Positions 12,135 to 33,359 are shown, counted from the stretch's first letter. The stretch: DNA of 64,000 nucleotides from Escherichia coli (GCF_044324785.1 NZ_CP172129.1); one strand, 5' to 3'. The notes: a model not told the origin generated them from the sequence alone. Program-made: numbers and translations.

Positions 12135-12524
12135 CCGTGCTCATTTCCTCAAAAAATACAAGAAAAGAATTAGTATTCTAACAAAAAGTGAAATAAATTG
12201 TATCAAACTCCCTCTTTTAATCCTGTTGAGTAAATCAGCTTTTGCAATAGGATTGAAAGAGTGTAAGTGGAATCTCTTCCGGATACTCGTTACCACCGTG
12301 GCTAGAATATCTACGGCTGCGGGCCAGTAATAGATTAAGTGATAACAGCTGTCTGGAAATGTAGGGGCGTATCCACTAATCATAATCATTGTGAGATAAA
12401 TATTACGGGGCATTTTATAATGAATAAAATATACTCTCTAAAATATTGTCATATTACCAATACCATGAAGGTGATGCTGCCAACTTACTGATTTAGTGTA
12501 TGATGGTGTTTTTGAGGTGCTCCA

Positions 12525-12800
12525 GTGGCTTCTGTTTCTATCAGCTGTCCCTCCTGTTCAGCTACTGACGGGGTGGTGCGTAACGGCAAAAGCACCGCCG
12601 GACATCAGCGCTATCTCTGCTCTCACTGCCGTAAAACATGGCAACTGCAGTTCACTTACACCGCTTCTCAACCCGGTACGCACCAGAAAATCATTGATAT
12701 GGCCATGAATGGCGTTGGATGCCGGGCAACTGCCCGCATTATGGGCGTTGGCCTCAACACGATTTTACGTCACTTAAAAAACTCAGGCCGCAGTCGGTAA
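12525..12800 (+). CDS. insA: IS1 InsA
   Basis: 91-aa [94 protein letters not shown]. Confidence 0.9.
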
Positions 12801-16094: not shown

Positions 16095-16705
16095 GTGAGA
16101 CTACGATTCCATTAATGCCTGCCAGTGAGTGTGTGGAACATATCTTGGCCAGTGGCTTGGTCTGTGATGTGCTGCGTATACCGGGTGAACCGCCCCGCCG
16201 CTTGTTTGACCGCTATATTCTGCGGGAGTTTTCTTGGAGGCACGGGATGAAATCCGCAGCATGGCGGATGCCCTGGCAAAAATCCGGAAATGATGACGAT
16301 GGCGGGGAAAATCCCCGCCTTTTTCCTGCCGGTCCCCGGACAGAGCACAAAGGAAGTCGCCGCCGGCTCCGCTTTACCCGGCCATGCGGAGCATGGCCTT
16401 GTGGGGGTTCAGTTATGTGGACGTCGAGTCGTGTGCGGGCTGTGCCGTGCCTCCATCTTAGCCGGGCTGGCGTTGATGCAAGCAACTGTCTTAATGGGAG
16501 GCGGTTATCTGAAAAAAGTACGGGATAATATTATGGAATCGCCCATCTCAAGCAAAAAACTGACTCGCTTCGATACTACGCTGACAGGCTGTTTTGAGCG
16601 AGATATCTCTCGTGTCGGGCATCGACATTTTAAATGATTCTAAATAATATGAGCAGGGTCAGTCTTATTAAAGATTAAAACACCGGATAACAAGTTTTAT
16701 TGATT

Positions 16706-17281
16706 ATGGATGAAGAGAAAACTCGTGCTGAAGTGGCACACATAGAATTTATTTCATATGGTACGTCTCGAATTTTTGATAGGCGTATGAGATCCTTAGA
16801 CTGGAAGCGTAAGGTTGTCACCTTCCTTGGGGTCTTTGTTCCACTGATGATAGGTTGTGCAGTTTTATCATTCGGACTTGAAGCTCCATTTCTGCCGCTT
16901 TGCATCACAATTGCCGGTGTGGCAAGTATCATGCAATTGGGGTTCTCGCTGTGGTCTTTGGTTTCCGGATGGGATCGCTCATATAGTGATTGCATGGCTT
17001 CCGTTAAGGAAAATACAGCCATTTATAACCTAGCTGGTAGTGTTCGCAAGAAAATAGGTAAGCTTGACGAAGCCAAATTGGAAATTTTGATAGACGATTT
17101 GACGGAAAAATTTGAGCGAAGGGAGCAGGAAGACTTAACTTTGTGTGTGAGTGATAAAGAACTTCGTTATGCAAACCGTATGTCCTGTTTCTACTTCAAA
17201 AAAAAATGCCATATTTGTAATGTCGTTCCCCTAACTTTGAAACCGGGAAAATGTGTTTGTGATGGTTGTGGGAAATTTTAA
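16706..17281 (+). CDS. Hypothetical membrane protein: two predicted TM helices, charged helical region, C-terminal Cys cluster (CxxC...CxCxxC)
   Basis: ORF 16700..17281; AT-rich island; hydrophobic stretches VVTFLGVFVPLMIGCAVLSFGL and LPLCITIAGVASIMQLGFSLWSLV; C-terminal KKKCHICNVVPLTLKPGKCVCDGCGKF; no recalled homolog. Confidence 0.5.
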   Translation: MDEEKTRAEVAHIEFISYGTSRIFDRRMRSLDWKRKVVTFLGVFVPLMIGCAVLSFGLEAPFLPLCITIAGVASIMQLGFSLWSLVSGWDRSYSDCMASVKENTAIYNLAGSVRKKIGKLDEAKLEILIDDLTEKFERREQEDLTLCVSDKELRYANRMSCFYFKKKCHICNVVPLTLKPGKCVCDGCGKF

Positions 17282-17293
17282 CAAGGAGAACAT

Positions 17294-17506
17294 ATGAGTA
17301 GTGCAAAAATTCTTAACGCTTACTTCGAGGCTTCTGAAGAAGATCGAAAGGAGTTCCTACGGGTTCTTAGTCATTTTTATAAGGATAACCGAAGAGTACC
17401 TCTGCAAGAGGGCATGGAGAGCTTTGCCGTCAATGAAAGCATCCGTAAATCGCAGTCAATTAACTTTGCCCCTATGCAAGGTGGGTGTCCACTCTGCGGC
17501 AAGTAA
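17294..17506 (+). CDS. Hypothetical small protein (70 aa) with C-terminal CPLCGK motif, likely co-transcribed with the upstream gene
   Basis: Strong Shine-Dalgarno AAGGAG 6-8 nt upstream of ATG at 17294; 12-bp gap after upstream gene; hairpin terminator follows. Confidence 0.5.
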   Translation: MSSAKILNAYFEASEEDRKEFLRVLSHFYKDNRRVPLQEGMESFAVNESIRKSQSINFAPMQGGCPLCGK

Positions 17507-17510
17507 CGAC

Positions 17511-17545
17511 CAAAGCCGCTTGACTAGCGGCTTGATAGATTTCTT
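17511..17545 (+). terminator. Putative intrinsic terminator after the two-gene cassette
   Basis: aagccgcttgactagcggctt hairpin followed by T-rich tract gatagatttctttatatt. Confidence 0.4.
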
Positions 17546-17559
17546 TATATTGTAACTAG

Positions 17560-19000
<1,441 letters not shown>

Positions 19001-19139
19001 ACCCTCCAACTCCCGCCAGCCGTGTGTGTCAGGCTGCGGCTTCCCTTGCGCCCTTTGCATCCCCGCCTTATCGCCCGGCTTTTATGGAGGCACGGCACAG
19101 CCCGGTGTCGCGGAATATGTGAACAACGGAGGAAATCCC

Positions 19140-19565
19140 ATGCAGTATGCGAAACCTGTCACTCTGAATGTTGAAGAGTGCGACCGTCTGTCTTTTCTGC
19201 CTTACCTGTTTGGCAACGATTTTCTGTATGCCGAAGCATATGTGTACGCGCTGGCGCAAAAAATGATGCCGGAATATCAGGGAGGCTTCTGGCACTTCAT
19301 CCGCCTGCCGGACGGTGGCGGTTACATGATGCCGGATGGCGACCGTTTTCATCTGGTTAACGGTGAAAACTGGTTTGACCGCACGGTCAGTGCCGATGCC
19401 GCAGGCATCATTCTGACTTCCCTTGTGATTAACCGCCAGTTGTGGCTGTACCACGACAGCGGTAACGCAGGGCTGACACACCTGTACCGGATGCGTGATG
19501 CGCAGTTGTGGAGCCACATCGAATTTCACCCCGAATGTAACGCGATTTACGCGGCGCTGGACTGA
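19140..19565 (+). CDS. klcA: Antirestriction protein KlcA/ArdB family
   Basis: 141-aa protein (start trimmed from ORF 18960..19565 to MQYAKPV behind GGAGGA); motifs [53 protein letters not shown] parallel RK2 KlcA. Confidence 0.8.
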
Positions 19566-19654
19566 TTAACGGACGGGGCGGCAATGCCGCCCCTGTAAAG
19601 GAGACGAGAACATGTACTGTTAAAGAAATTATCCGCGATGTACTGGATACAGAC

Positions 19655-20026
19655 GTGCCGGACAGTGAATGCGTTTTTGCCGTGGTGCTGACCCGTGGGA
19701 ATGTGCGCCATATGGCTCAGGACTGGAACCTGTCAGACGATGAGCTGGAAACCGTCATGCAGCGGCTGGACGATGCTTTTGTATATGGCGCATGTGACAG
19801 AGTTGTTTCCGATATTGTCAATGAACTGATGGAGGAAAAGCGCGTAAACCGCCTTGTAACAGTCCCTGCGGTGCTGCTGGAAAAAGTGATGGTGATGGCT
19901 GGTAGTGAAATTTATCGCCTCCATGCTGTCGGGAGCGAGAACGGGGGCGACGGTGACGCATTTGTCAGGGAAGAACGTGAGATTATGCGGGTGATGCGTC
20001 AGGCGCTGGACGGGGAGAACGGGTAA
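19655..20026 (+). CDS. Hypothetical leading-region protein (123 aa, acidic)
   Basis: ORF from track; position between klcA and first Frpo-like repeat; start codon uncertain (GTG, frame open upstream). Confidence 0.45.
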   Translation: MPDSECVFAVVLTRGNVRHMAQDWNLSDDELETVMQRLDDAFVYGACDRVVSDIVNELMEEKRVNRLVTVPAVLLEKVMVMAGSEIYRLHAVGSENGGDGDAFVREEREIMRVMRQALDGENG

Positions 20027-20208
20027 TGAATATCAGCACGGAAACCCGCGAAATTCTGCGTAATTACAAAACCGTGATTAATGCGCGGCGTCGTGAGATG
20101 GGGCAGAAACCGCTCACCACCGCGCAGATTGTTGATGAAATCTGCGATTTTGTGACGAATCAGCAGGCGGTTTTCCTCGGTGGTCACTATATCCTTCAGG
20201 GCAGCTGA
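20026..20208 (+). CDS. Hypothetical small leading-region protein (60 aa)
   Basis: ORF overlapping upstream stop (ATGA), suggests translational coupling. Confidence 0.4.
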   Translation: MNISTETREILRNYKTVINARRREMGQKPLTTAQIVDEICDFVTNQQAVFLGGHYILQGS

Positions 20209-20442
20209 AACAGGTGATACAGGGCAGGCGGTGGAGGCCGCCTGTCAGCCCGCGCGAACCCCCCTGGCAGGCTGACGCCTGCCGGAAGGGAAGCGGGCCA
20301 CGCTGACGCGTCGCCCGTTACCCTTCCCGTTAGTGATGTGTCCGGAATGTTTTTTCTGATGTTATTTTTCTGTGGTTACCGTGTTTGTTATTGTTCTTCT
20401 TCTTTTTCCTCTTCCTCTTCTTTCCGTTCCTCTCCTGTTTAT

Positions 20443-20970
20443 GGCTTTTCCGGGCGTCCCCCTGGCGGGGCGGGCTGTCGTGAACGGAGCCAGCGGAGCT
20501 GTCTCCGCCCTGGCGGGCTTCCATCCCTGACGCGAAACCATGGCTTGCAGCGACCGTTCCGGTCGCGCCGCCTCTGTCGCGCCGTGGCCTGCGCTCCCGG
20601 CATCCCGGCAAAAGGCGCCGGAATGTAAGGAGCAACGCCGTTTCGCAAACCGCGCTTCACGTCGTTGCGGCGGGTCCCTGCTCATTGCCTGCCAAGTGCC
20701 ACACACCCGTATGAGTCCCTGTCGCCGGGGGCTGAGACAGCCACAACCTGCCGCACTGACTGTCCAGGGTAAATGAACAGCCCACAAAATTTTTTACCCA
20801 GAACCCGGTAAAAAATTTTGCGTTCTGCCCAGGACAGGTGCGTCAGGCCGTGGCAGTGATGCCCCTTGCGGCGAAGGTTCTCAAACGGGTGAAGTTCATA
20901 CCACAGGGAATACAGCAGCAGGTTCCCGCGAAACGTCAAAACCGCGGCTCCCGAAACTCAACGGGTGATG
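20443..20970 (+). repeat. Frpo/ssi-like repeat copy 1 (putative single-stranded DNA promoter), preceded by CT-rich tract
   Basis: About 530 bp nearly identical to copies at 23700-24230 and 29091-29630; begins ccttttccgggcgtccccctggcggggcgggctgtcgtgaacggagccagcggagc. Confidence 0.6.
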
Positions 20971-21201
20971 TTCTTTAAAAATCAGGATTTATTTCAGGCT
21001 CCGGCAATACGCATTTATTTGTTCTGTCAGTCATCCGGCTGGCAGGTAATGAGAACGCAGGAACAGAAGGAGGAAAACACCGGAAAGCGTCAGATGCAGA
21101 TATGAAAAAAGCAGGTCAGGGACCTGCTTAATCCACGCCGTAGAAATCGCCGCAATCGATTTTCACGGCTTCACTAACCTGTGTCATAAGGAGTTTCATT
21201 T

Positions 21202-21432
21202 ATGACAGTAAGTATTGTTTCACCTTCCGCAGCGGCTGTAAAGCCCCGCCGTCATCCCCGTTTCAGACGCGAAGACATCCCCGCGCCGGAAATTGACCCC
21301 GTGCTGAAAGCATTCGGGCGACACATAGCCCGGAGTTTTCACCGGGGACGTGGTGTACACATCCCCGCCATGAAAAACACGGCTTTCGGGCAGGTGCTCC
21401 GCACACTTGAACTGAAACGCGCTTTTAACTGA
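21202..21432 (+). CDS. Hypothetical small basic protein (76 aa), first gene downstream of Frpo-like copy 1
   Basis: ORF with AAGGAG-like SD (cataaggagtttcatttATG). Confidence 0.5.
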   Translation: MTVSIVSPSAAAVKPRRHPRFRREDIPAPEIDPVLKAFGRHIARSFHRGRGVHIPAMKNTAFGQVLRTLELKRAFN

Positions 21433-21483
21433 TGAGGTGAGCCGCCCCGCGAGGGGCGGCAACAGACGGAAGGAGAACATTTT

Positions 21484-22845
21484 ATGACATTAGCAGCAAT
21501 CACCATGACCGCCCCAGAAGCCGCCAGCCCTGTGCAGATGTACCGCGCGACCTACTCACCGGATGACAACAAACTGCGCCTGTATGCTGCGTCACGTCTT
21601 GACCCGGAGACGTATAAAAAAGTGCATGATGCCGGTTTTCGCTGGGCACCAAAACAGGCGCTGTTTGTGGCTCCAGCCTGGACACCGGGCCGGGAAGACG
21701 TGCTCCTCTCACTTGCCGGAGAGATTGAGGATGAAGACAGCACGCTCGCTGAACGTCAGGAAGCACGGGCGGAGCGGTTTACCGGATACAGCGGAAAGCG
21801 GGCCAGTGAATCCGCACAGGCACTTGATGAAGTGGAAAGACTGGCCGCGATGATCCCGCCCGGTCAGCCCATTCTTGTGGGGCATCACAGCGAACGCCGC
21901 GCCCGTCGTGATGCGCAGCGTATTGAAAACGGCATGAAACGTGCCGTGATGCTCGTTGAACGTGCGGAATACTGGGAAGAGCGGGCGCGGTCGGCACTGC
22001 TTCACGCGAAGTATAAAGAACGTCCGGACGTTCGCTGGCGTCGTATCAAAAAAATCGAAGCTGATTTGCGCAAGGCTGAAAAGACCATCGCGCAGTCGCA
22101 GAAATATCTGACGATATGGCGGGCTGAATCGCTGGATCTGAATATGGCAAAACTCATCAGTAGTCATGACCGTATCAGTGCCTGTTTCCCGCTGGATACG
22201 TATCCGCGCCCGGCAGAAAAAAGCCAGTATGAAGGAAGTCGATCGTTATGGTCGGCCCTGGATGATGACATCATCACCACGGAGCAGGCCCGCGAAATTG
22301 CGATCCGCTGTCATAAACGGCAGATTCAGCATCAGCAACGCTGGGTTAACCACTATCAGAACCGCCTGATCTATGAGCGTGCCATGCTGGACGAAAGCGG
22401 CGGCGTGGTTACCCGGACACAGGATTTTGAGCCGGGCGGACAGGTTTTCAGCCGGGGCGAGTGGCTGACCATCATCCGCGTGAACAAAAGCAACGGGACG
22501 GTGAGTTCAGTCACAACGCCGAATTACAGTTTTCTCGGGTACAGTGGCACGATGAAAGTGACGCCCGATCGCATTACGGACTACAAAGCACCATCGGCAG
22601 AAGAGGCTGCCGTCGCCAGTCAGGCCGCTAAGCGTCCGCCTGTTGTCAACTATCCGGGAGAAGGTTTCCGGGAAATGACAAAGGCACAGTGGGCTGCCCT
22701 GCCCCGGGACTGTAAGGCCGTGCGCAGTGTGGCAGAGGCAGAAGACCACGGGGCATATCGTTACCGCCGCACAATGGACAATAATTTCCGCCTGGTGAAT
22801 GTGTATATCACCGACATGAAGATTACGGAAATCCCACAGAAATAA
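21484..22845 (+). CDS. Conserved leading-region protein (453 aa), possibly DUF3560-like
   Basis: ORF from track with SD ggaaggagaacattttATG; family name is from memory and unverified. Confidence 0.55.
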   Translation: MTLAAITMTAPEAASPVQMYRATYSPDDNKLRLYAASRLDPETYKKVHDAGFRWAPKQALFVAPAWTPGREDVLLSLAGEIEDEDSTLAERQEARAERFTGYSGKRASESAQALDEVERLAAMIPPGQPILVGHHSERRARRDAQRIENGMKRAVMLVERAEYWEERARSALLHAKYKERPDVRWRRIKKIEADLRKAEKTIAQSQKYLTIWRAESLDLNMAKLISSHDRISACFPLDTYPRPAEKSQYEGSRSLWSALDDDIITTEQAREIAIRCHKRQIQHQQRWVNHYQNRLIYERAMLDESGGVVTRTQDFEPGGQVFSRGEWLTIIRVNKSNGTVSSVTTPNYSFLGYSGTMKVTPDRITDYKAPSAEEAAVASQAAKRPPVVNYPGEGFREMTKAQWAALPRDCKAVRSVAEAEDHGAYRYRRTMDNNFRLVNVYITDMKITEIPQK

Positions 22846-22892
22846 GGTATATCCTCCCGGGAAAATCCCCGGGGGATGACGGAGATAATGAC

Positions 22893-23456
22893 ATGTACAG
22901 TCAGTTAAGAGAACGTATCCGGCTGATGCGCGCAAGGCTGGATAACGCCGCGCCGGTTGCTGAAATCCGGGCTGAATCTCAGCTTTTTGTGACTCCTGCC
23001 CCGGTCTGTGATCGCCTGGTGACGCTGGCGGGGATCAGCAACCGTGATCACATTCTGGAACCCTCTGCCGGCACCGGGGCCATACTGCGGGCGATTAGGG
23101 ATACCGCGCCGGTAGCCATGTGTGATGCGGTGGAAATCAACAGCGGGCTGGTCCGGTATCTGCGGGAAAATTTTAACGGTGTCAGGGTTCAGTGTGGCGA
23201 CTTCATGGAATGGCAGCCGGTGCAGTATTACAGCCGGGTTATCATGAATCCGCCGTTCAGCCACGGGCAGGATATCCGGCATATCCTGCGGGCCTTTTCC
23301 CTGTTGCGTCCGGGTGGCGTGCTGGTCGCCGTCTGTCTCAACGGGCCACGCCAGCAGGAGAAGCTGTTACCGTTTTCTGACGTCCGCGAGGAGCTGCCGC
23401 GCGGCACATTTGCTTATACCGATGTCCCGACGATGATTATTCGTCTGCGTGCCTGA
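22893..23456 (+). CDS. Orphan DNA adenine-N6 methyltransferase
   Basis: SAM-binding motif I EPSAGTGAIL and catalytic motif IV NPPF present; no adjacent restriction endonuclease gene. Confidence 0.7.
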   Translation: MYSQLRERIRLMRARLDNAAPVAEIRAESQLFVTPAPVCDRLVTLAGISNRDHILEPSAGTGAILRAIRDTAPVAMCDAVEINSGLVRYLRENFNGVRVQCGDFMEWQPVQYYSRVIMNPPFSHGQDIRHILRAFSLLRPGGVLVAVCLNGPRQQEKLLPFSDVREELPRGTFAYTDVPTMIIRLRA

Positions 23457-23699
23457 AGACTCCGGGCAGGCGGGAGGATAAATGCTCGTCTGCCCGCGCC
23501 GGGAAAAGACCGCGCGCCGGTGGCGCTGAAAGGGGCCGCGCTCACGCGCCGCCCCTTTCATTACGCGGAAATTCTGCTGTGGGCTTCTGTCTTTTCAGAT
23601 CTGTCATTTGTCTGTTACTGATGATGTTCCTGCTACTGCTACTGTTTTTCTTTTTTCTGCTGCTCTGATTACTGTCTGTCTTGTTCTTCTTCTGCCTGT

Positions 23700-24230
23700 G
23701 CCTTTTCCGGGCGTCCCCCTGGCGGGGCGGGCTGTCGTGAACGGAGCCAGCGGAGCTGTCTCCGCCCTGGCGGGCTTCCATCCCTGACGCAAAACCCCTG
23801 GCTTGCAGCGACTGTTCCGGTCGCGCGCCTCTGTCGCGCCGTGGCCTGCGCTCCTGGCATCCCGGCAAAAGGCCGCCGGGATGTAAGGCGCAACGCCGTT
23901 TCGCAAACCGCGCTTCACGTCGTTGCGGCGGGTCCCTGCCCGTTGTTATGTCCGGTGCCATTCACCTGTTTAAGCCCCTGTCGCCGGGGGCAAAGACAGC
24001 CACAACCGTCTCCGCCAGTCCAGGGGTGAAATGCACATCCCGCAAAACTTTTTGCCCAAAAGCAGGCAAAAACTTTTGCGGTCTGCCCCCGGACAGTCGT
24101 TTCCTGCCGTGGCAGTGATGCCCCTTGCGGCGAAGGTTTTCAAAAAGGTGATGGTGAATACCGGAGGGAACAAAAGGCAGGTCCCCGCAAAACGTCAAAA
24201 CCGCGGCTCCCGAAACTCAAAAGATGATGG
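23700..24230 (+). repeat. Frpo/ssi-like repeat copy 2 (putative single-stranded DNA promoter), preceded by CT-rich tract
   Basis: Same 5' ~300 bp as copies 1 and 3, divergent central segment; directly upstream of ssb. Confidence 0.6.
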
Positions 24231-24261
24231 GGCTGAAAACATCAACAGAAGGAGACACATC

Positions 24262-25090
<829 letters not shown>

Positions 25091-25153
25091 GAGAGGTGCC
25101 GGACGGGAATGCGTCCGGCAGACATACAACCATCCCGGTCAAAGGAGAAATAT

Positions 25154-27112
25154 ATGTCGGTTACAGAGTCTAAGACAAAAACGGAGCGTAAATCCAGCCG
25201 TAAACCGTCAAAAGAGCAGGAGACTGCCCTGTCTGCCCTGCTGGCGCAGACGGCGGAAGTGAGCGTGCCGCTGGCCTCACTGATTAAATCACCACTGAAT
25301 GTGCGCACGGTGCCGTATTCTGCGGAGTCTGTCAGCGAACTGGCGGAGTCCATTAAGGGCGTTGGCCTGTTGCAGAATCTGGTCGTGCATACCCTGCCTG
25401 GTGACCGTTACGGTGTCGCCGCAGGTGGTCGCCGACTGGCTGCACTCAACATGCTGGCAGAGCGTGGCATCATTCCGGCTGACTGGCCTGTCCGTGTGAA
25501 GGTCATTCCGCAGGAGCTGGCGACGGCGGCATCAATGACTGAAAACGGTCATCGTCGGGATATGCACCCTGCTGAACAGATTGCCGGATTCCGCGCAATG
25601 GCGCAGGAAGGCAAAACACCTGCACAAATCGGTGATTTGCTGGGCTATTCACCCCGCTATGTCCAGCGAATGCTGAAACTGGCTGACCTTGCGCCTGTCA
25701 TCCTCGATGCGCTGGCAGAAGACCGCATCACTACCGAACACTGTCAGGCGCTGGCGCTGGAGAACGACACCGCGCGTCAGGTACAGGTGTTTGAAGCCGC
25801 CTGTCAGTCGGGATGGGGCGGAAAACCGGATGTGCGGGTTATCCGCAATCTGATTACGGAAAGTGAAGTGGCGGTGGCGGGGAACAGTAAATTCCGCTTC
25901 GTGGGGGCTGATGCTTTCTCACCTGACGAACTGCGTACTGATTTGTTCAGCGATGACGGGGACGGTTATGTCGACCGCGTGGCGCTCGATGCTGCCCTGC
26001 TGGAAAAACTCCAGGCTGTCGCTGAACACCTTCGGGAAGCCGAAGGCTGGGAATGGTGCGCCGGACGCATGGAGCCTGTCGGTGAGTGCCGTGAGGATGC
26101 CGGAACATACCGCTGTTTGCCGGAGCCGGACGCGGTGCTGACGGAGGCGGAAGAAGAACGCCTGAACGAACTGATGACGCGTTACGACGCGCTGGAAAAC
26201 CAGTGTGAGGAATCCGACCTGCTGGAAGCAGAAATGAAGCTGATGCGCTGCATGGCGAAGGTCAGAGCGTGGACGCCGGAGATGCGTACCGGAAGCGGTG
26301 TGGTGGTGTCCTGGCGTTACGGTAATGTGTGTGTCCAGCGTGGTGTGCAGTTGCGCAGCGAGGATGACGCGGCTGACGACGCTGACCGCACGGAACAGGT
26401 GCAGGAGAAAGCATCAGTGGAGGAAATCAGTCTGCCACTGCTGACGAAAATGTCTTCCGAACGCACGCTGGCAGTCCAGGCGGCACTCATGCAGCAACCG
26501 GACAAATCCCTGGCACTGCTGGCATGGACGCTCTGCCTGAATGTGTTTGGCAGCGGAGCGTACAGTAAACCAGCACAAATCAGCCTGGAATGTAAACATT
26601 ATTCGCTGACCAGCGATGCGCCGTCAGGGAAGGAAGGTGCCGCGTTCATGGCGATGATGGCAGAAAAAGCCCGTCTTGCGGCCCTGTTACCGGAGGGATG
26701 GTCACGGGACATGACGACGTTCCTGTCACTCAGTCAGGAGGTGCTGTTATCCCTGCTCAGTTTCTGCACCGCGTGCAGCATCCACGGCGTTCAGACCCGC
26801 GAGTGTGGTCACACGTCACGCAGCCCGCTGGACACGCTGGAGAGCGCCATCGGTTTTCACATGCGTGACTGGTGGCAGCCGACAAAAGCAAACTTCTTCG
26901 GACACCTGAAAAAGCCGCAGATTATCGCAGCTCTGAATGATGCCGGACTGTCCGGTGCCGCACGGGATGCAGAGAAGATGAAGAAAGGTGATGCGGCTGA
27001 ACATGCAGAGCACCATATGAAAGACAACCGCTGGGTGCCTGGCTGGATGTGTGCACCACATCCACAGACGGATACCACTGAACGCACCGATAACCTGGCT
27101 GATGCCGCCTGA
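25154..27112 (+). CDS. ParB-like nuclease domain protein of the leading region
   Basis: ORF 25109..27112, start set at MSVTESK behind AAAGGAG; N-terminal ParB/Srx-like region (GLLQNLVVHTLPGDRYGVAAGGRRLAALNML). Confidence 0.65.
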   Translation: MSVTESKTKTERKSSRKPSKEQETALSALLAQTAEVSVPLASLIKSPLNVRTVPYSAESVSELAESIKGVGLLQNLVVHTLPGDRYGVAAGGRRLAALNMLAERGIIPADWPVRVKVIPQELATAASMTENGHRRDMHPAEQIAGFRAMAQEGKTPAQIGDLLGYSPRYVQRMLKLADLAPVILDALAEDRITTEHCQALALENDTARQVQVFEAACQSGWGGKPDVRVIRNLITESEVAVAGNSKFRFVGADAFSPDELRTDLFSDDGDGYVDRVALDAALLEKLQAVAEHLREAEGWEWCAGRMEPVGECREDAGTYRCLPEPDAVLTEAEEERLNELMTRYDALENQCEESDLLEAEMKLMRCMAKVRAWTPEMRTGSGVVVSWRYGNVCVQRGVQLRSEDDAADDADRTEQVQEKASVEEISLPLLTKMSSERTLAVQAALMQQPDKSLALLAWTLCLNVFGSGAYSKPAQISLECKHYSLTSDAPSGKEGAAFMAMMAEKARLAALLPEGWSRDMTTFLSLSQEVLLSLLSFCTACSIHGVQTRECGHTSRSPLDTLESAIGFHMRDWWQPTKANFFGHLKKPQIIAALNDAGLSGAARDAEKMKKGDAAEHAEHHMKDNRWVPGWMCAPHPQTDTTERTDNLADAA

Positions 27113-27163
27113 TGAACAACCACACCGCCCCGCCGGAGACGGGGCAGCAGCAAGGGAGATACC

Positions 27164-27601
27164 GTGATGAAAACTGAACTGACCCTGAATGTATTACAGA
27201 CCATGAACGCACAGGAATATGAAGATATCAGGGCTGCCGGAAGTGATGAACGCCGTGAGCTGACACACGCCGTGATGCGGGAACTGGATGCGCCGGACAA
27301 CTGGACGATGAATGGCGAGTACGGCAGCGAGTTCGGCGGCTTTTTCCCCGTCCAGGTCCGTTTCACGCCTGCCCACGAACGTTTTCACCTGGCGTTATGT
27401 TCACCGGGTGATGTCTCCCAGGTCTGGGTGCTGGTTCTGGTGAATGCCGGTGGTGAGCCGTTTGCGGTGGTTCAGGTACAGCGGCGGTTTGCACCGGAAG
27501 CAGTCAGCCATTCACTGGCACTGGCGGCGTCACTGGATGCGCAGGGGTACAGCGTTAACGACATCATCCATATCCTGATGGCGGAAGGAGGTCAGGTATG
27601 A
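27164..27601 (+). CDS. psiB: Plasmid SOS inhibition protein PsiB
   Basis: [53 protein letters not shown]... recalled as PsiB; followed by overlapping psiA. Confidence 0.85.
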
Positions 27602-28317
27602 ACGCACGTTCACGGGCACTGGTTCCCCTCAGCACAGAGCAACAGGCCGCATGGCGGGCGGTGGCGGAGACGGAAAAACGCCGCCATCAGGGAAACACGC
27701 TGGCGGAATATCCGTATGCGGGAGCATTTTTCCGCTGTCTGAACGGAAGCCGCCGGATTTCGCTGTCTGACCTGCGATTTTTCATGCCGTCCCTGACCGC
27801 AGAAGAACTGCACGGCAACCGTCTTCAGTGGCTGTGTGCCATCGATGTGCTGATTGAAACACAGGGCGAGGTCTGCCTCCTTCCCCTTCCCGGCGATGCA
27901 GCAGAACGCTTGTTCCCGTCGGTGCGGTTTCGTGTCAGGGAACGCAGTCGCCATAAATCCGCGCTGGTCATGCAGAAGTACAGCCGCCAGCAAGCGAGGG
28001 AGGCAGAGCAGAAAGCCCGTGCGTACCAGGTGCTGGTTGCTCAGGCTGAAATCGAACTGGCATTTCATTCACCGGAAACAGTCGGAAGCTGGCATGCACG
28101 CTGGAGTGACCGGGTGGCAGAGCATGACCTGGAACCCCTGTTCTGGCAGTGGGGCGAGCGTTTTCCGTCACTGGCCGGAATGGAACGCTGGCAGTGGCAG
28201 GATATGCCATTCTGGCAGGTTATCGCGGAAGCCAGTCTGGCAGCCAGAGAGGCCGGTCATGCTGTCCGTGAGATGGAGCGGTGGATGGTGCCGAACAAAC
28301 TCCGGGAGGCAGCGTGA
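27598..28317 (+). CDS. psiA: Plasmid SOS inhibition protein PsiA
   Basis: 239-aa ORF overlapping psiB stop (ATGA), canonical psiB-psiA arrangement. Confidence 0.85.
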
Positions 28318-28469
28318 TGCGGCAATAATCACACGGATTACCCGTGAACTGGTTGAACGACCAGATTATTTTCAGGGAAAGTGAGTGTGGTCAGCGTGCA
28401 GGGATATGAGCTATGATGTGCCCGGCGCTTGAGGCTTTCTGCCTCATGACGTGAAGGTGGTTTGTTACC

Positions 28470-28545
28470 GTGTTGTGTGGCAGAAGGCAGAAAGCCCCGT
28501 AGTTAATTTTTCATTAACCCACGAGGCCCCCTGTATGTCTGATCA
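28470..28545 (-). ncRNA. sok: Sok/FlmB antisense RNA (position approximate)
   Basis: Inferred from the conserved hok/sok architecture (antisense to the mok leader); not directly delimited in sequence. Confidence 0.3.
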
Positions 28546-28750
28546 ACAACAGTATGGCCTCTTACCGTGCTTAATGCAAGGAGGAGTAAACCATGAAACT
28601 ACCGGGAAACGCCCTTATCTGGTGCGTATTAATCGTGTGCTGCACGTTGTTAATATTCACACTCCTGACCCGGAATCGTCTGTGCGAAGTCCGGCTGAAG
28701 GACGGATACAGGGAGGTTACGGCAAGTTTGGCTTACGAATCCAGCGGTAA
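28535..28750 (+). CDS. mok: Mok/FlmC (modulation of killing) reading frame overlapping hok
   Basis: ORF 28451..28750 overlaps hok in a different frame and ends 4 nt before the hok stop; start set at internal MSDQQQ. Confidence 0.5.
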
Positions 28751-28754
28751 GTAG
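28593..28754 (+). CDS. hok: Hok/FlmA family post-segregational killing toxin (53 aa)
   Basis: Translates [55 protein letters not shown] aaggagg upstream. Confidence 0.85.
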
Positions 28755-29090
28755 CAACCTGGAGGCGGGCGCAGGCCCGCCTTTTCAGGGCTGATGCTGG
28801 TCTGACTGCACTGAAGCGCCTTTATAAAGGGGCTGCTGGTTCGCCGGTGGCCCCTTTCTCCTTGCTGGCATTGTGCGGGCATGAACAACCAGACTGCCAG
28901 GAAGGCCGTTTCCCTCCGGGAACGGGGATGAACGTGCGCCTGCGGCGCCCGTTCTTTTCCCCCGCCTTCTCTGTTTATGACCTGTCAGAAATCACATCAC
29001 CTTCCCTTTGATTATTCTCTTTTTCCTCCTGTTCTGACTCTGATTACTGCTGCCCTGATTATTGTCTGTTTTGTTGTTCTCCTGCTTATG

Positions 29091-29630
29091 CCTTTTCCGG
29101 GCGTCCCCCTGGCGGGGCGGGCTGTCGTGAACGGAGCCAGCGGAGCTGTCTCCGCCCTGGCGGGCTTCCATCCCTGACGCGAAACCCCGGGCTTGCAGCG
29201 ACCGTTCCGGTCGCGCCGCCTCTGTCGCGCCGTGGCCTGCGCTCCCGGCATCCCGGCAAAAGGCCGCCGGGATGTAAGGGGCAACGCCGTTTCGCAAACC
29301 GCGCTTCACGTCGTTGCGGCGGGTTCCTGCCCGTTGTTGTGTCCGGTGCCATTCACCTGTTTAAGCCCCTGTCGCCGGGAGCTGATACAGCCACAACCTG
29401 CCGCACTGACTGTCCAGGGTAAATGAACAGCCCACAAAATTTTTTACCCAAAACCCGGTAAAAAATTTTGCGTTCTGCCCAGGACAGGTGCGTCAGGCCG
29501 TGGCAGTGATGCCCCTTGCGGCGAAGGTTCTCAAACAGGTGATGGTGAATACCGGAGGGAACAAACGGCAGGTCCCCGCAAAACGTCAAAACCGCGGCTC
29601 CCGAAACTCAACAGATGATGGGGGCTGAAA
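29091..29630 (+). repeat. Frpo/ssi-like repeat copy 3 (putative single-stranded DNA promoter), preceded by CT-rich tract
   Basis: Near-identical to copy 1 over its full length; directly upstream of ORF 29653. Confidence 0.6.
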
Positions 29631-29652
29631 ACCAGAGAGAGGAGAAAGCAGG

Positions 29653-29940
29653 ATGAGTACCCGAAATATCCACGTTAACATCGCGTCGTACACGCTTCTT
29701 GTTGCCGGGAAGAAAAAATACACCGGGGAAGAGTGGGACGTCCTGGAATTCAGCAGCCTGACTGAGCTGAAAAAATATCGCAAAAGCCACCCGGAAAAGA
29801 TGGCCTTCAGCTATAGCTATGCGCTCAGCCGGGGTGTGGATACGCAGTTCCGCCATATCAACATTGCGGAAGCCGATCACTTCAAACAGTTCCTGCGTCA
29901 GATTAAGCGTACCGGCCTCGATATCCGGGCTATCTGCTGA
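29653..29940 (+). CDS. Hypothetical leading-region protein (95 aa)
   Basis: ORF from track immediately downstream of Frpo-like copy 3. Confidence 0.5.
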   Translation: MSTRNIHVNIASYTLLVAGKKKYTGEEWDVLEFSSLTELKKYRKSHPEKMAFSYSYALSRGVDTQFRHINIAEADHFKQFLRQIKRTGLDIRAIC

Positions 29941-30058
29941 CCGGATGTGATGAATATCCCTCCTGATTGTTGCAATCTTGTTAATGGAGATCGGGAGGGA
30001 TGATATTAAGCGGAAAAATTTTTTATTAAATTTATTCTTTCATAAAGGAGTAGCTGTT

Positions 30059-30880
30059 ATGCGATTAGCTTCCCGTTTTGGTCGGTATAATTCCATCCGC
30101 CGTGAACGTCCTTTAACGGATGATGAATTAATGCAGTTTGTGCCTTCGGTGTTTTCCGGTGATAAACATGAGTCCCGGAGTGAACGTTATACGTATATTC
30201 CAACAATCAATATCATCAATAAGTTACGTGATGAAGGTTTCCAGCCATTCTTTGCCTGTCAGAGTCGGGTTCGTGATTTGGGACGTCGCGAATACAGTAA
30301 ACATATGTTACGTCTTCGCAGGGAAGGGCATATTAACGGGCAGGAAGTTCCTGAAATTATCCTGCTTAATTCACATGATGGTTCATCCAGTTATCAGATG
30401 ATCCCCGGAATTTTTCGTTTTGTCTGCACAAATGGCCTGGTGTGCGGAAATAATTTTGGCGAAATCCGCGTTCCACATAAAGGTGATATTGTCGGGCAGG
30501 TTATCGAGGGAGCGTATGAAGTGCTCGGTGTCTTTGATAAGGTCACTGATAATATGGAGGCGATGAAAGAAATTCATCTTAACAGTGACGAGCAACATTT
30601 ATTTGGCAGAGCTGCACTGATGGTCAGGTATGAAGATGAAAATAAAACGCCGGTGACGCCTGAACAGATAATTACTCCCCGTCGTCGGGAGGATAAACAG
30701 AACGATCTCTGGACAACCTGGCAGCGGGTTCAGGAGAATATGATAAAAGGTGGATTATCGGGGCGAAGTGCCTCCGGGAAAAATACCAGGACAAGAGCCA
30801 TTACAGGTATTGATGGTGATATAAGAATCAACAAAGCATTATGGATGATTGCCGAACAGTTCAGGGAGTGGAAGTCGTGA
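30059..30880 (+). CDS. Conserved leading-region protein, possibly DUF932 family
   Basis: ORF 29978..30880, start set at MRLASRFGRYNS behind aaaggag; strong terminator follows; family name from memory, unverified. Confidence 0.5.
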   Translation: MRLASRFGRYNSIRRERPLTDDELMQFVPSVFSGDKHESRSERYTYIPTINIINKLRDEGFQPFFACQSRVRDLGRREYSKHMLRLRREGHINGQEVPEIILLNSHDGSSSYQMIPGIFRFVCTNGLVCGNNFGEIRVPHKGDIVGQVIEGAYEVLGVFDKVTDNMEAMKEIHLNSDEQHLFGRAALMVRYEDENKTPVTPEQIITPRRREDKQNDLWTTWQRVQENMIKGGLSGRSASGKNTRTRAITGIDGDIRINKALWMIAEQFREWKS

Positions 30881-30890
30881 TAATATAGGT

Positions 30891-30925
30891 AAAGCCCCGA
30901 AAAATTTTCGGGGCTTTACTTATAT
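30891..30925 (+). terminator. Intrinsic terminator
   Basis: aaagccccgaaaaattttcggggcttt hairpin followed by T-rich stretch. Confidence 0.55.
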
Positions 30926-31175
30926 TGTCATCCTTCGGCATTGCTATGTCGTCTGATATGCCTCAATTTCATCAACTGGCTTTTCGGTAGTCTGTAAATA
31001 TTGTGCCCGCGAAAAATGGTCTGGCAGGAGGCTACGCAGTTACCGGATATATATAATATGGGTTCCCGCTTTGCGGGGCTTCGGCCAGTCAGCATTATCA
31101 CTCATATGATATTTTTGTGTGTGGCCTTCCATGCCGCTGTCGCGGCATAACCGGTATTTGACAATGTATACAATA

Positions 31176-31685
31176 TTAATTGTTCTGCACACTGTTCATT
31201 TGGGAAAGTGATTTCTTCGTGGTCGGAACCCGGATACCTTTACTGCTTTTTATCCCGGTATAAATCCGGTAAACATCTGATGCGTAGGCAAGACGCCTCT
31301 GGTTCTGGCGTTCGGTTTTCCTGAATCCGGCATTGTATGCACCAACGGCCTCCCAGGTGACGCCCCATTTTTTAAATGCTATTGCCAGATAATAAGCACC
31401 GGTATAAATGTTCATGCAGGGATCTGTTGTCATATGTTCCGGCTTAATTCCGTAGCGGGCCAGTTCGTTAAAATGCTGGGAATCTACCTGCATCAGTCCG
31501 CTGCCATATCCCGTTACCGGATTAATACCGATGGCATTAACCCGGTAACGGGATTCTTGCCATGATATTGCTCTCAGTAAATCAGGATCTATTTTGTAAT
31601 CCCTGCCTGCAAGATCAAAGCAATCAGTGGCCAGACAGATCTCATTTATAAACATCAGGCAGATGGCTAACATCCATTTTTTCAT
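31176..31685 (-). CDS. Lytic transglycosylase (F orf169/gene X homolog)
   Basis: 169-aa secreted protein with SLT-domain motifs (ISWQESRY ... GLMQV ... AYNAG); located next to oriT as in F. Confidence 0.8.
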
Positions 31686-31699
31686 TTTTCCACCTCTGG

Positions 31700-32099
31700 T
31701 GACTTTATCCGTAAATAATTTAACTCACTCCACAAAAAGGCTCAACAGGTTGGTGGTTCTCACCACCAAAAGCACCACACCCCACGCAAAAACAAGTTTT
31801 TGCTGATTTTTCTTTATAAATAGAGTGTTATGAAAAATTAGTTTCTCTTACTCTCTTTATGATATTTAAAAAAGCGGTGTCGGCGCGGCTACAACAACGC
31901 GCCGACACCGTTTTGTAGGGGTGGTACTGACTATTTTTATAAAAAACATTATTTTATATTAGGGGGGGCTGCTAGCGGCGCGGTGTGTTTTTTTATAGGA
32001 TACCGCTAGGGGCGCTGCTAGCGGTGCGTCCCTGTTTGCATTATGAATTTTAGTGTTTCGAAATTAACTTTATTTTATGTTCAAAAAAGGTAATCTCTA
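31700..32099. other. oriT: Origin of transfer oriT with nic region and TraM binding sites
   Basis: caccacaccccacgcaaaaacaag is the complement of the F-type nic sequence GCGTGGGGTGTGGTG (nick near 31776 on minus strand); downstream palindromes gcggtgtcggcgcgg...ccgacaccg and ataccgctaggggcgctgctagcggtgcg resemble R100-type TraM sites. Confidence 0.75.
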
Positions 32100-32483
32100 A
32101 TGGCTAAGGTGAACCTGTATATCAGCAATGATGCCTATGAAAAAATAAATGCGATTATTGAGAAGCGTCGACAGGAAGGGGCAAGGGAAAAAGATGTCAG
32201 TTTTTCAGCAACAGCTTCAATGCTTCTTGAACTGGGGCTTCGTGTACATGAGGCTCAGATGGAGCGTAAAGAGTCTGCATTTAATCAGACTGAGTTTAAT
32301 AAATTGCTTCTTGAATGCGTTGTAAAAACACAATCATCAGTAGCGAAAATTTTGGGTATTGAGTCTCTCAGTCCTCATGTCTCCGGAAATCCAAAGTTTG
32401 AATATGCCAATATGGTTGAAGATATCAGGGAGAAGGTATCATCTGAGATGGAACGATTTTTTCCAAAAAATGATGATGAATAA
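32100..32483 (+). CDS. traM: Relaxosome accessory protein TraM
   Basis: 127-aa ORF MAKVNLYISNDAYEKINAIIEKRRQEGAREKDVSFSATASMLLELGLRV... Confidence 0.9.
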   Translation: MAKVNLYISNDAYEKINAIIEKRRQEGAREKDVSFSATASMLLELGLRVHEAQMERKESAFNQTEFNKLLLECVVKTQSSVAKILGIESLSPHVSGNPKFEYANMVEDIREKVSSEMERFFPKNDDE

Positions 32484-32589
32484 AAGAAATTTGACTTCGT
32501 TCAAATATCAGAGTTTTTATGATTTAAAAAGGTGACAGTACGAAAGATAATTAGTATATTAATTACGTGGTTAATGCCACGTTAAAATT

Positions 32590-32668
32590 TGAAATTGAAA
32601 ATCGCCGATGCAGGGAGACGTGAACTCCCTGCATCGACTGTCCATAGAATCCTTTGTGAGGAGGTTCC
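32590..32668 (-). ncRNA. finP: FinP antisense RNA (position approximate)
   Basis: Stem-loop cgatgcaggga-gacgtgaac-tccctgcatcg and a second hairpin covering the traJ SD lie in the traJ leader; FinP is antisense to this region in F-like plasmids. Confidence 0.45.
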
Positions 32669-32669
32669 T

Positions 32670-33359
32670 ATGTATCCGATGGATCGTATTCAACAAAAAC
32701 ATGCTCGTCAAATAGATCTGCTGGAAAATCTGACGGCAGTTATTCAGGATTATCCAAATCCAGCCTGTATCAGGGACGAAACTGGAAAATTTATTTTTTG
32801 CAATACGCTGTTTCATGAGTCATTTCTTACACAAGATCAAAGTGCTGAAAAATGGCTTCTGTCGCAGAGAGATTTTTGTGAATTGATCTCTGTCACAGAG
32901 ATGGAAGCATATAGGAATGAGCATACGCATCTTAATCTTGTAGAGGATGTTTTTATTCAGAACAGATTCTGGACAATATCTGTCCAGTCATTTCTTAATG
33001 GACACAGAAATATTATTCTGTGGCAATTTTATGATGCTGCTCATGTTCGTCATAAAGACAGTTATAATCAAAAAACGATTGTCAGTGATGATATCAGAAA
33101 TATAATCAGAAGAATGAGTGATGATTCTTCTGTATCATCATATGTAAATGATGTCTTTTACTTATATAGCACCGGAATCAGTCATAATGCTATAGCAAGA
33201 ATATTAAATATATCCATCTCCACATCAAAGAAACACGCATCTCTGATATGCGACTACTTCTCTGTTTCTAATAAAGATGAGTTAATTATCTTACTCTACA
33301 ATAAAAAGTTTATTTATTATTTATACGAGAAAGCTATGTGTATCATAAATACGCGTTAA
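32670..33359 (+). CDS. traJ: Transfer operon activator TraJ
   Basis: ORF 32589..33359, start set at MYPMDRIQQKHARQIDLLENL behind gaggaggttcct. Confidence 0.85.
   Translation: MYPMDRIQQKHARQIDLLENLTAVIQDYPNPACIRDETGKFIFCNTLFHESFLTQDQSAEKWLLSQRDFCELISVTEMEAYRNEHTHLNLVEDVFIQNRFWTISVQSFLNGHRNIILWQFYDAAHVRHKDSYNQKTIVSDDIRNIIRRMSDDSSVSSYVNDVFYLYSTGISHNAIARILNISISTSKKHASLICDYFSVSNKDELIILLYNKKFIYYLYEKAMCIINTR

Follow-up and report, generated by a model that had tools for sequence, protein, structure and literature searches.

What are the three long direct repeats that stand in front of gene blocks in an F-like plasmid of Escherichia coli, and which of their parts does what? The stretch analyzed, here called the window, comprises 64,000 nucleotides of NZ_CP172129.1 (GCF_044324785.1). 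A repeat search over positions 19000-31000 returned three direct copies in register (20362-20985, 23619-24244 and 29009-29635), named copies A, B and C below. A sequence-only reading had placed repeats at about 20443-20970, 23700-24230 and 29091-29630 and had proposed that they are single-stranded promoters of the Frpo/ssi type, which fold into promoter-like hairpins so that leading-region genes are expressed early. The repeats are real, and these spans run, within ~10 nt, from the start of a conserved module to the base of a hairpin. We conclude, with a probability of about 0.93, that each repeat is the head of an expression cassette and that its 3′ ~320 nt are a class 1 single-stranded DNA (ssDNA) promoter (Frpo/ssi/ssp1). 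The element itself, the Frpo/ssi hairpin promoter, is already known; added here are the position of the promoter within the repeat, a third cassette compared with F, the mosaic structure of the copies and a conserved junction, M1.

Along the plus strand, each repeat consists of a low-complexity tract (~100 nt), the module M1 (84 nt), a second module, M2 (~105 nt), and the hairpin (~320 nt). The mean column identity of the three-way alignment is 87% and is distributed unevenly: 48-59% in the tracts, 98.8-100% in M1 (100% between copies A and C), 91.6-95.3% in M2 and 76.8-88.4% in the hairpin. By these segment identities, the pattern of a near-identical 5′ part and a partly divergent 3′ part described earlier holds, but the near-identical stretch measures ~200-250 bp and not ~300 bp. 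The near-identical 5′ ~200 bp is a module separate from the promoter hairpin, which is the divergent 3′ half of the repeat. In copy C this hairpin is a mosaic, with a core 96.6% identical to that of copy A and outer arms 97-98.5% identical to those of copy B. Arm-by-arm diagrams show that core and outer arms are exchanged between copies and that both arms change together, with pairing preserved. Compared with F, the hairpin types have also changed places, copy B resembling F Frpo1 most and copy C F Frpo2; together with this exchange, the mosaic sequence indicates that recombination or gene conversion has probably taken place between copies.

Using the F ssiD/Frpo sequence (D90178; Samuel 2024, Supplementary Table 2) as a BLASTN query, we found matches on the minus strand in copy B (96.6% over 351 nt, 24232-23884), copy C (87.6%, 29624-29275) and copy A (79.7%, 20959-20626). 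The copies are also homologous to the ColIb-P9 ssi sequences, at ~68-80% identity and in the core only, the outer arms being unlike. All three copies fold on the minus strand into a single long, imperfect hairpin of ~320 nt each, with -92 to -101 kcal/mol (DNA parameters); the z-scores are -7 when dinucleotides are shuffled and -8.7 to -11.5 when mononucleotides are. Compared with the plus-strand fold (-76 to -89 kcal/mol), that of the minus strand is better by 9-13 kcal/mol and contains more G.T pairs. Among 840 sliding 300-nt windows of the minus strand between 12 and 33 kb, the three deepest minima are the three hairpins (-84 to -88.5 kcal/mol; mean -43.6, standard deviation 12.7). A like fold is found in the homologues from F, Klebsiella, Enterobacter, Citrobacter, Serratia, an insect metagenome and ColIb-P9. 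In an alignment of 12 sequences with the copy C fold as structure, 87.1% of the cells are paired, compared with 39-48% when partners are slid, and 16 pairs (50 cells) have changed on both sides; shuffles gave 23.8 ± 3.5 such cells, and none of 500 reached 50. Thus, both the folding of the transferred strand and the comparison with published F and ColIb-P9 sequences, the two computational checks that the sequence-only reading had proposed, came out in its favor as regards hairpin and homology, with a stable hairpin in 3/3 copies and compensatory changes in relatives, the -35/-10 elements being candidates.

The location agrees with this assignment. Over 701 bases around copy A, the window is 100% identical to more than 300 IncF plasmids from E. 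coli and Salmonella, most of which, among the matches listed, have three such places per record; in all, the number of matching records exceeds 5000. The top match, again 100% identical, is p1658/97, a plasmid named as a variant of the R1-R3 repeat arrangement of IncI plasmids in PMC3817090. Annotation was taken from a near-identical plasmid of ATCC 11775 (L001; the window coordinate is the L001 coordinate + 6299), according to which the copies sit in the leading region of a MOBF/MPF_F (IncF) plasmid. There, sopAB, an antirestriction gene and a DUF1380 gene are followed by copy A with a 76-aa gene, a DUF3560 gene and an S-adenosylmethionine (SAM) methyltransferase gene; then come copy B, the DUF905, ParB-like and hok genes, copy C, a 95-aa gene and a DUF932 gene; and finally the SLT gene, oriT and traM/J/Y/A. 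The genes ssb, psiB and psiA of block B are not in the L001 gene table, and their positions come from homology; comparison with F and pBSI055 puts ssb, the DUF905 and ParB-like genes, psiB, psiA and the ygeA-like and ygeB-like genes where they are expected. The block A genes are 96-98% identical to those of pBSI055, and the block C genes 98% identical to those of F. Each copy therefore stands, as had been suggested, in front of its own leading-gene block, and the three-cassette layout recurs in pBSI055 and pKM41_2.

The strand follows from the sequence GTGGGGTGT/GGTGCTTT, which we take to be the F-type nic site. It matches exactly on the minus strand between the SLT gene and traM, at a chance expectation of 0.17 matches with up to three mismatches, so that the minus strand is the transferred strand and the template for genes on the plus strand. 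All genes downstream of the copies are on the plus strand, and the copies lie 2.2-11.4 kb from nic. The earlier statement that the following genes are on the strand entering the recipient first is right in the sense that the minus strand is both transferred and template. It would go in 5′ end first from nic at ~31.78 kb toward lower coordinates, so that copy C would arrive first, then copy B and then copy A.

Where in the hairpin does the promoter lie? From F to ColIb-P9, a series of features is conserved on the 3′ arm. Beginning at the apex, these are an A/T-rich apical stem (AAAATTTTTTACC / GGTAAAAAATTTT); a one-sided bulge of 8-10 nt on the 3′ arm only (TTCATTTA, TGCATTTCA, GTGCATCTCA); the duplex CCC-TGGAC(A/T) with its partner (A/T)GTCC-GGG; and TGgCTGT(C/A)T beside a small internal loop, at a helical distance of 17 bp after TGGAC(A/T). 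To enter the genes, polymerase has to move along the 5′ arm away from the apex and toward the base; the non-template strand of the promoter must therefore be the 3′ arm, and its boxes appear on the wrong strand in the linear sequence. In agreement with this, a consensus scan of 20200-29800, which is a weak test, detected no σ70-like site on the plus strand in or just upstream of the repeats. Our candidate boxes are TGGACA for the -35 and, for an extended -10, the element beside the internal loop; alternatively, the bulge, as a pre-melted stretch, could serve as -10. The working Frpo-acrIIA4 construct of Samuel et al. (2024) is limited to the 5′ arm, the apex and a 3′ arm that stops at ...CCCCGGCGACAGGGAC. 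The core promoter must therefore lie in the apex-proximal part, which excludes the boxes near the base that scored best with a position weight matrix (PWM), and promoter activity does not require the outer 3′ arm, M2, M1 or the tract. The boxes TTGACG and TTGAGA...CATCAC on the 5′ arm were rejected, as their pairing partners are missing from that functional construct.

Based on these features and on published work, we propose the following course of events. On arrival in the recipient, copies C, B and A would fold in turn into long imperfect hairpins. The apex-proximal part would imitate a double-stranded σ70 promoter, with the A/T-rich apical stem, the TGGACA duplex as -35-like element and a -10-like element at the mismatched internal loop. 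Host RNA polymerase would initiate within the hairpin and proceed down the 5′ arm into the downstream genes, with the transferred strand as template. Early and transient expression would then comprise the 76-aa gene, the DUF3560 gene and the methyltransferase gene from unit A; ssb, the DUF905 gene, the ParB-like gene, psiB and psiA from unit B; and the ygeA-like and ygeB-like genes from unit C. Synthesis of the complementary strand would abolish the hairpins and switch the promoters off, and the transcripts may double as primers for this synthesis. M1, M2 and the A-poor tract would be accessory, most likely forming a cassette boundary on the single strand, be it an insulator/terminator or a DNA-processing site.

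Homology, location, strand, fold and covariation were computed here, whereas promoter activity, single-strand dependence and primer use are taken from the literature; the hexamers and the activity of copy A we infer. Frpo was defined in vitro by Masai and Arai (1997), and single-stranded Frpo recruits RNA polymerase (both as reported in PMC9849209). Venturini et al. (2013; PMC3817090) described three imperfect Frpo repeats, R1-R3, each before leading genes, on the IncI plasmid pO26-CRL125. Deletion of Frpo1 or Frpo2 of F abolishes early expression, which ceases once the DNA turns double-stranded (Couturier et al. 2023; PMC9849209). Samuel et al. (2024) counted 13,089 Frpo homologues in 6,006 elements; in their study an Frpo construct driving an anti-CRISPR gene rescued transfer ~225-fold, only on the T-strand in the leading region, and was inactive on the complement or in the lagging region. 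The name class 1 ssDNA promoters was introduced by Wen et al. (2025; PMC12672017), who mapped start sites by 5′ rapid amplification of cDNA ends. Primer use is supported by a rifampicin-sensitive early conversion at psiA and ygeB, downstream of ssp1/Frpo promoters (bioRxiv 10.64898/2026.01.09.698686).

Several points weigh against this interpretation. Strand-specific transient activity in recipients has been demonstrated for F Frpo1 and Frpo2 and for pESBL ssi1-3 (PMC9849209; Samuel et al. 2024; PMC12672017), and these are the elements that the experiments cover. The methyltransferase operon of F and pESBL is under a different promoter class (PMC12672017). The -35 and -10 hexamers are weak matches, and the PWM scan gave no strong conserved pair. 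The covariation set comprises 12 sequences only, several of them closely related. Finally, the transferred strand shows 86 G.T against 32 A.C mismatches, an excess that is partly built in, as the structure was derived from one sequence, and that is nearly gone in the most distant homologues (24 versus 20). For this reason, the strand assignment rests mainly on biology and on the published experiments.

Compared with known systems, the closest relative is the Frpo (ssiD) of F, that is, Frpo1/ssp1a and Frpo2/ssp1b, with which the copies share 80-97% identity, the ~320-nt hairpin, the strand and the positions upstream of ssb...psiA and of ygeA/ygeB. F has two copies, whereas the window has a third, copy A, with a 76-aa/DUF3560/methyltransferase block that F does not carry at that position. 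The ssi1-ssi3 of ColIb-P9/R64 and R1-R3 of IncI plasmids (Bates 1999; Venturini 2013) are likewise three imperfect direct repeats before leading-gene blocks, and ColIb-P9/R64 shares with the window the apex, the one-sided bulge, the CCCTGGAC duplex and part of M2. They lack M1 and carry another upstream module instead, and their backbone is MOBP/IncI rather than MOBF/IncF. F and pESBL also have ssDNA promoters of class 2 (ssp2, “Frpo3”) and class 3 (Wen 2025, PMC12672017; bioRxiv 10.64898/2026.01.09.698686), which are likewise long hairpins on the transferred strand that drive leading operons, but they show no sequence homology to class 1. The biological meaning is that of a known switch, with which F-like resistance and virulence plasmids turn on genes for SOS inhibition, ssb and anti-defense genes before the incoming strand is copied. 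Recognition of the element aids annotation, since RefSeq shows blanks or spurious “hypothetical proteins” over the repeats.

What, then, is the 5′ half of the repeat? Its first segment had been described as a ~100-bp pyrimidine-rich tract. The enrichment is real, with pyrimidine fractions of 0.79, 0.73 and 0.73 in copies A, B and C against 0.48 in the window, but with an A content of 7-15% the tracts are better termed A-poor and T-rich. At most 0.3% of all 103-nt windows are as pyrimidine-rich as any of the tracts, and 0.05% as the tract of copy A. In related plasmids, the tracts vary by small tandemly repeated units, among them (CTGCTA)n, CTTCCTCTT repeats and duplications of 18 nt. No tract is found upstream of ColIb-P9 ssi3 or of most M1 copies from outside the enterobacteria. 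Taken together, the tract behaves as a low-complexity, repeat-prone spacer unable to pair with itself; as a speculation, it might serve for the loading of Rho on read-through RNA, or offer a loading zone without structure on the single strand.

Within the repeat, conservation is highest not in the promoter but in M1, a separate folded module. On the plus strand it reads GGGCGTC, a hairpin, CGGGCTGTCGTGAACGGAGCC, a second hairpin, GTCTCCGCC, a C..G hairpin, GGCTTCCATCCC and TGACGC. An exact scan for GCTGTCGTRAACGGAGCC in 100,044 species genomes returned 67 loci, with ~17 expected by chance. When these were combined with the window and loci collected earlier, 61 of 87 pattern matches carried the downstream anchor GTCTCCGC of the M1 architecture. 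Hosts include Enterobacterales (Erwinia, Yersinia, Cedecea, Mixta, Raoultella, Intestinirhabdus) and Alphaproteobacteria (Devosia, Methylocapsa, Bradyrhizobium, Stappia, Hyphomicrobium, Enhydrobacter), as well as genome bins labeled Selenomonas and Veillonellaceae, for which mis-binning is possible. A covariance model of M1 built from 33 sequences (R1) recognized 73 instances in the collected loci, including Pseudomonas and Wenzhouxiangella, and exactly three in the window.

Copies of M1 also occur in contigs of Streptomyces morookaense (L012-L014) and in bins labeled Firmicutes or Actinobacteria (L018, L019, L029, L031, L048). The copies in L012-L014, L018, L019 and L031 are of the enterobacterial type, those in L014 and L031 being (nearly) identical to copies from E. 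coli/Klebsiella plasmids, and contamination or mis-binning is their probable origin. The variant in L029 and L048 is distinct, and the Negativicutes label of these two is uncertain rather than clearly wrong.

The M1 fold is borne out by covariation. In 56 distinct sequences, 95.2% of the cells are paired, compared with 83.4 ± 0.5% after shuffling and at most 57% with slid partners, and 14 of 23 pairs have changed on both sides (125 cells versus 35.6 ± 4.2 in shuffles), values that the fitting of the alignment to the model favors. The closing stem covaries already in the raw sequences (GCGTC/GACGC, GCGAC/GTCGC, GCGAT/ATCGC, GCGCA/TGCGC, GCGCG/CGCGC, CCGCA/TGCGG), and an inner helix changes from GGG/CCC to GCG/CGC, or to GG/CC with one pair missing. 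Mismatches are rare and evenly divided into 10 G.T and 11 A.C, so that wobble counts favor neither strand; since functional RNAs, by contrast, tolerate G.U, these equal counts suggest that M1 may fold at the DNA level. With DNA parameters, the transferred strand folds better in 33 of 33 sequences, which share a conserved core and are not independent; with RNA parameters, the ratio is 22 to 10. No Rfam 15 family (STAXI included) matched within the repeats at E ≤ 1 (17000-33000), and none matched at all in six distant M1 loci. The M1 core sequence was not found in the searchable literature, and a search for ardC and stem-loops returned only an unrelated repressor paper. By eye, hammerhead-like and tRNA-like junctions do not fit. 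The stems of M2 persist with different sequences in versions from ColIb-P9, Salmonella and an insect metagenome.

Downstream of M1 there is always a long hairpin on the transferred strand, whose class varies, and behind it a gene of the leading type. In Bradyrhizobium and Stappia this gene is ardC (Pfam ArdcN, 1e-45), in S. arizonae and Mixta it belongs to the Antirestrict family (Pfam), and in Erwinia it is ssb. NCBIfam gave no match for the genes downstream of M1, whereas Pfam did. M1 is not universal, its place being taken by another module in ColIb-P9 and pKM41_2. Such a structured replacement was seen at 12331-12560 of ColIb-P9 (L003), at ~3043-3140 of L007 and at ~10720-10811 of L004, with GTCTCCGCC and GGGCTGTCG in reverse order. 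We tentatively propose, at somewhat less than even odds, that M1 is an undescribed and widespread structured ssDNA element that marks the upstream edge of early-expression cassettes on conjugative plasmids and integrative elements. It is found in Enterobacterales, other Gammaproteobacteria, Alphaproteobacteria and possibly the Negativicutes bins, paired with several unrelated classes of hairpin promoters, and its role may be distinct from promoter activity, for example in priming, double-strand conversion or read-through at cassette boundaries. If M1 governs the processing of the incoming strand, it would offer a general, testable handle on plasmid establishment.

A more specific proposal for the 5′ half, which complements the hairpin promoter instead of replacing it, is that M1 and M2, together with the tract, are an element of their own on the single strand, which would either prime the complementary strand or make polymerases stall, or insulate them, at the cassette boundaries; we regard this as less likely than not. 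As a primosome or primase site, it would have the tract as an unstructured loading zone, and either role would tune the time for which the promoter stays single-stranded. The conservation of M1, its covarying junction without an RNA-like G.U excess, and its position 3′ of different long-hairpin classes before ardC, Antirestrict-family and ssb genes in distant Proteobacteria are consistent with such an element. There is also a precedent in ssp2, the class 2 hairpin of the leading region, which blocks conversion to double-stranded DNA (bioRxiv 10.64898/2026.01.09.698686). Against it, M1 is replaced by another module in certain class 1 copies (ColIb-P9, pKM41_2), the rifampicin-sensitive early conversion fits primers made by RNA polymerase better than primase, and near-identity within one plasmid could stem from gene conversion. 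Moreover, no known priming motif or sso consensus was recognized in M1 or M2. The sso elements of rolling-circle plasmids, the priming sites of the phiX174/G4 type and the Rfam family STAXI are conserved folds that act, or are proposed to act, on ssDNA near ssb or antirestriction genes. From what is generally known of these systems, their resemblance to M1 and M2 is one of concept only.

For the hairpin itself, the class 1 promoter reading has to be set against a function in RNA, as a 5′ leader or attenuator of transcripts from ordinary double-stranded promoters. Complementary RNA would form nearly the same hairpin, as the plus-strand energies illustrate, and compensatory changes by themselves cannot separate DNA from RNA. 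Nevertheless, we consider this very improbable: the consensus scan offered no σ70-like promoter upstream on the plus strand, the published construct needs the T-strand and the leading region and fails elsewhere, single-stranded Frpo recruits RNA polymerase in vitro (Masai and Arai 1997, as reported in PMC9849209), and expression ends at the double-stranded stage (PMC9849209).

Hardly credible is a descent of the repeats from a mobile element (miniature inverted-repeat element, insertion sequence ends or transposon scar) that does not function as a promoter. They are dispersed direct repeats of ~620 bp with ISEc32 (17767-18738) nearby, PMC3817090 speculated that a segment between repeats is mobile, and a 3.78-kb record contains two copies. 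However, terminal repeats and a transposase, which the sequence-only reading had named as signs of such a remnant, are absent, as is a conserved open reading frame (ORF): the copies are not flanked by inverted repeats, the hairpin apex being the one inverted repeat found, and the internal ORFs have no NCBIfam match and are interrupted by 1-nt indels that distinguish the copies. In IncF, IncI and other plasmids, the repeats keep a constant orientation and location with respect to oriT and the downstream genes, and the mosaic copies fit homologous recombination.

Equally implausible are small proteins encoded by minus-strand ORFs (e.g. 23542-23949) or by a plus-strand ORF over tract and M1 that ends at CATCCCTGA: RefSeq annotates hypothetical proteins over the copies in several plasmids, and the tract and M1 frame is open in all F-like copies, encodes a hydrophobic peptide and has three tract length differences that are multiples of 3, but the A-poor composition leaves every frame open by default, and we rejected both kinds of ORF because the long ones are broken by 1-nt indels between copies in M2, divergent homologues have an 8-nt deletion in M1 and do not keep the stop codon, stem substitutions are compensatory and not synonymous, and NCBIfam matches none of the internal ORFs.

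The coordinates of all features are compiled in Table 1.

Table 1. Repeats, their segments and the associated genes in the window (window numbering; MFE, minimum free energy)
Feature	Position	Strand	Basis or details
Copy A, whole repeat	20340-20957		~620 bp
Copy A tract	20340-20442	+	pyrimidine 0.79, A 6.8%; purine-rich on transferred strand
Copy A M1	20452-20535		84-nt multi-stem junction, helices P1-P5; model R1 90.9 bits
Copy A M2	20536-20639		three small G+C-rich hairpins (S3, S2, S1) between M1 and promoter hairpin; folds
Copy A class 1 ssDNA promoter hairpin (Frpo/ssi type)	20640-20957	-	apex ~20800-20806; MFE -97.6 (minus) vs -84.7 (plus) kcal/mol
Copy A candidate core, 3′ arm	20735-20777	-	structure diagram; hexamers putative
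Copy A bulge TTCATTTA	20770-20777	-
Copy A -35-like TGGACA	20761-20766	-	candidate
Copy A extended -10-like TGgCTGTCT	20735-20743	-	candidate
Gene block A	21202-23456	+	L001 annotation; starts with 76-aa gene
DUF3560 gene	21484-22845	+	block A
Class I SAM methyltransferase gene	22893-23456	+	block A
Copy B, whole repeat	23597-24216		~620 bp
Copy B tract	23597-23699	+	pyrimidine 0.73, A 9.7%
Copy B M1	23709-23792		model R1 93.3 bits
Copy B M2	23793-23897		alignment, fold
Copy B class 1 ssDNA promoter hairpin	23898-24216	-	nearest of the three to F Frpo (ssiD); MFE -92.1 kcal/mol
Copy B bulge	24027-24035	-	candidate
Copy B TGGACT	24017-24022	-	candidate
Copy B TGgCTGTCT	23994-24002	-	candidate
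Gene block B	24262-28754	+	annotation, homology, Rfam sok match
ssb	24262-24894	+	block B; frameshifted at 3′ end
DUF905 gene	24857-25090	+	block B
ParB-like gene	25154-27112	+	block B
psiB	27167-27601	+	block B
psiA	27598-28317	+	block B
hok/sok	28423-28754	+	block B
Copy C, whole repeat	28987-29607		~620 bp
Copy C tract	28987-29089	+	composition; begins just past terminator-like hairpin 28936-28948
Copy C M1	29099-29182		model R1 90.9 bits
Copy C M2	29183-29288		alignment, fold
Copy C class 1 ssDNA promoter hairpin	29289-29607	-	at F Frpo1 position; MFE -99.6 kcal/mol
Copy C bulge	29420-29427	-	candidate
Copy C TGGACA	29411-29416	-	candidate
Copy C TGgCTGTAT	29385-29393	-	candidate
Gene block C	29653-30880	+	homology, annotation
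ygeA-like 95-aa gene	29653-29940	+	block C
DUF932/ygeB-like gene	30059-30880	+	block C
oriT nic site	31769-31785	-	exact 17/17 match; between SLT gene and traM

Within the gene blocks, ssb after copy B differs from F ssb by a 1-nt indel, and ~30 extra residues take the place of the ...DDIPF end. The C-terminal interaction tip is thereby gone in the shifted frame, which may be real or a sequencing error, and the frameshift may explain why the gene table of the near-identical plasmid contains no ssb coding sequence. In the same cassette, Rfam identifies the sok antitoxin RNA at 28423-28595 (plus strand) beside the hok-family gene. The Rfam antisense RNA AS-pc01 (105 bits, 21106-21207, minus strand) overlaps the start of the 76-aa gene after copy A; antisense control may thus be a further layer of regulation of this first gene in cassette A.

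Upstream of copy A, the class 2 hairpin (ssp2/“Frpo3”) before the antirestriction gene (19140-19565) is split into two halves (16251-16482 and 18910-19144) by a 2.4-kb insertion (16483-18909) that contains a gene with a CxxCx11CxxC motif, a small ORF and, in minus-strand orientation, ISEc32. In F, this hairpin folds with -95 kcal/mol, and what is left of it in the window with only -54. In pBSI055 (L004), a group II intron (ltrA) at 8413-10080 is inserted just upstream of that plasmid's copy A. The PLSDB record NZ_CP083488.1 (3780 bp, an E. coli “plasmid”) contains two module copies and could be a circle that recombination between repeats has excised, or an assembly artefact. Beyond oriT, Rfam places the traJ 5′ untranslated region and FinP at 32565-32676, at the start of the tra operon.

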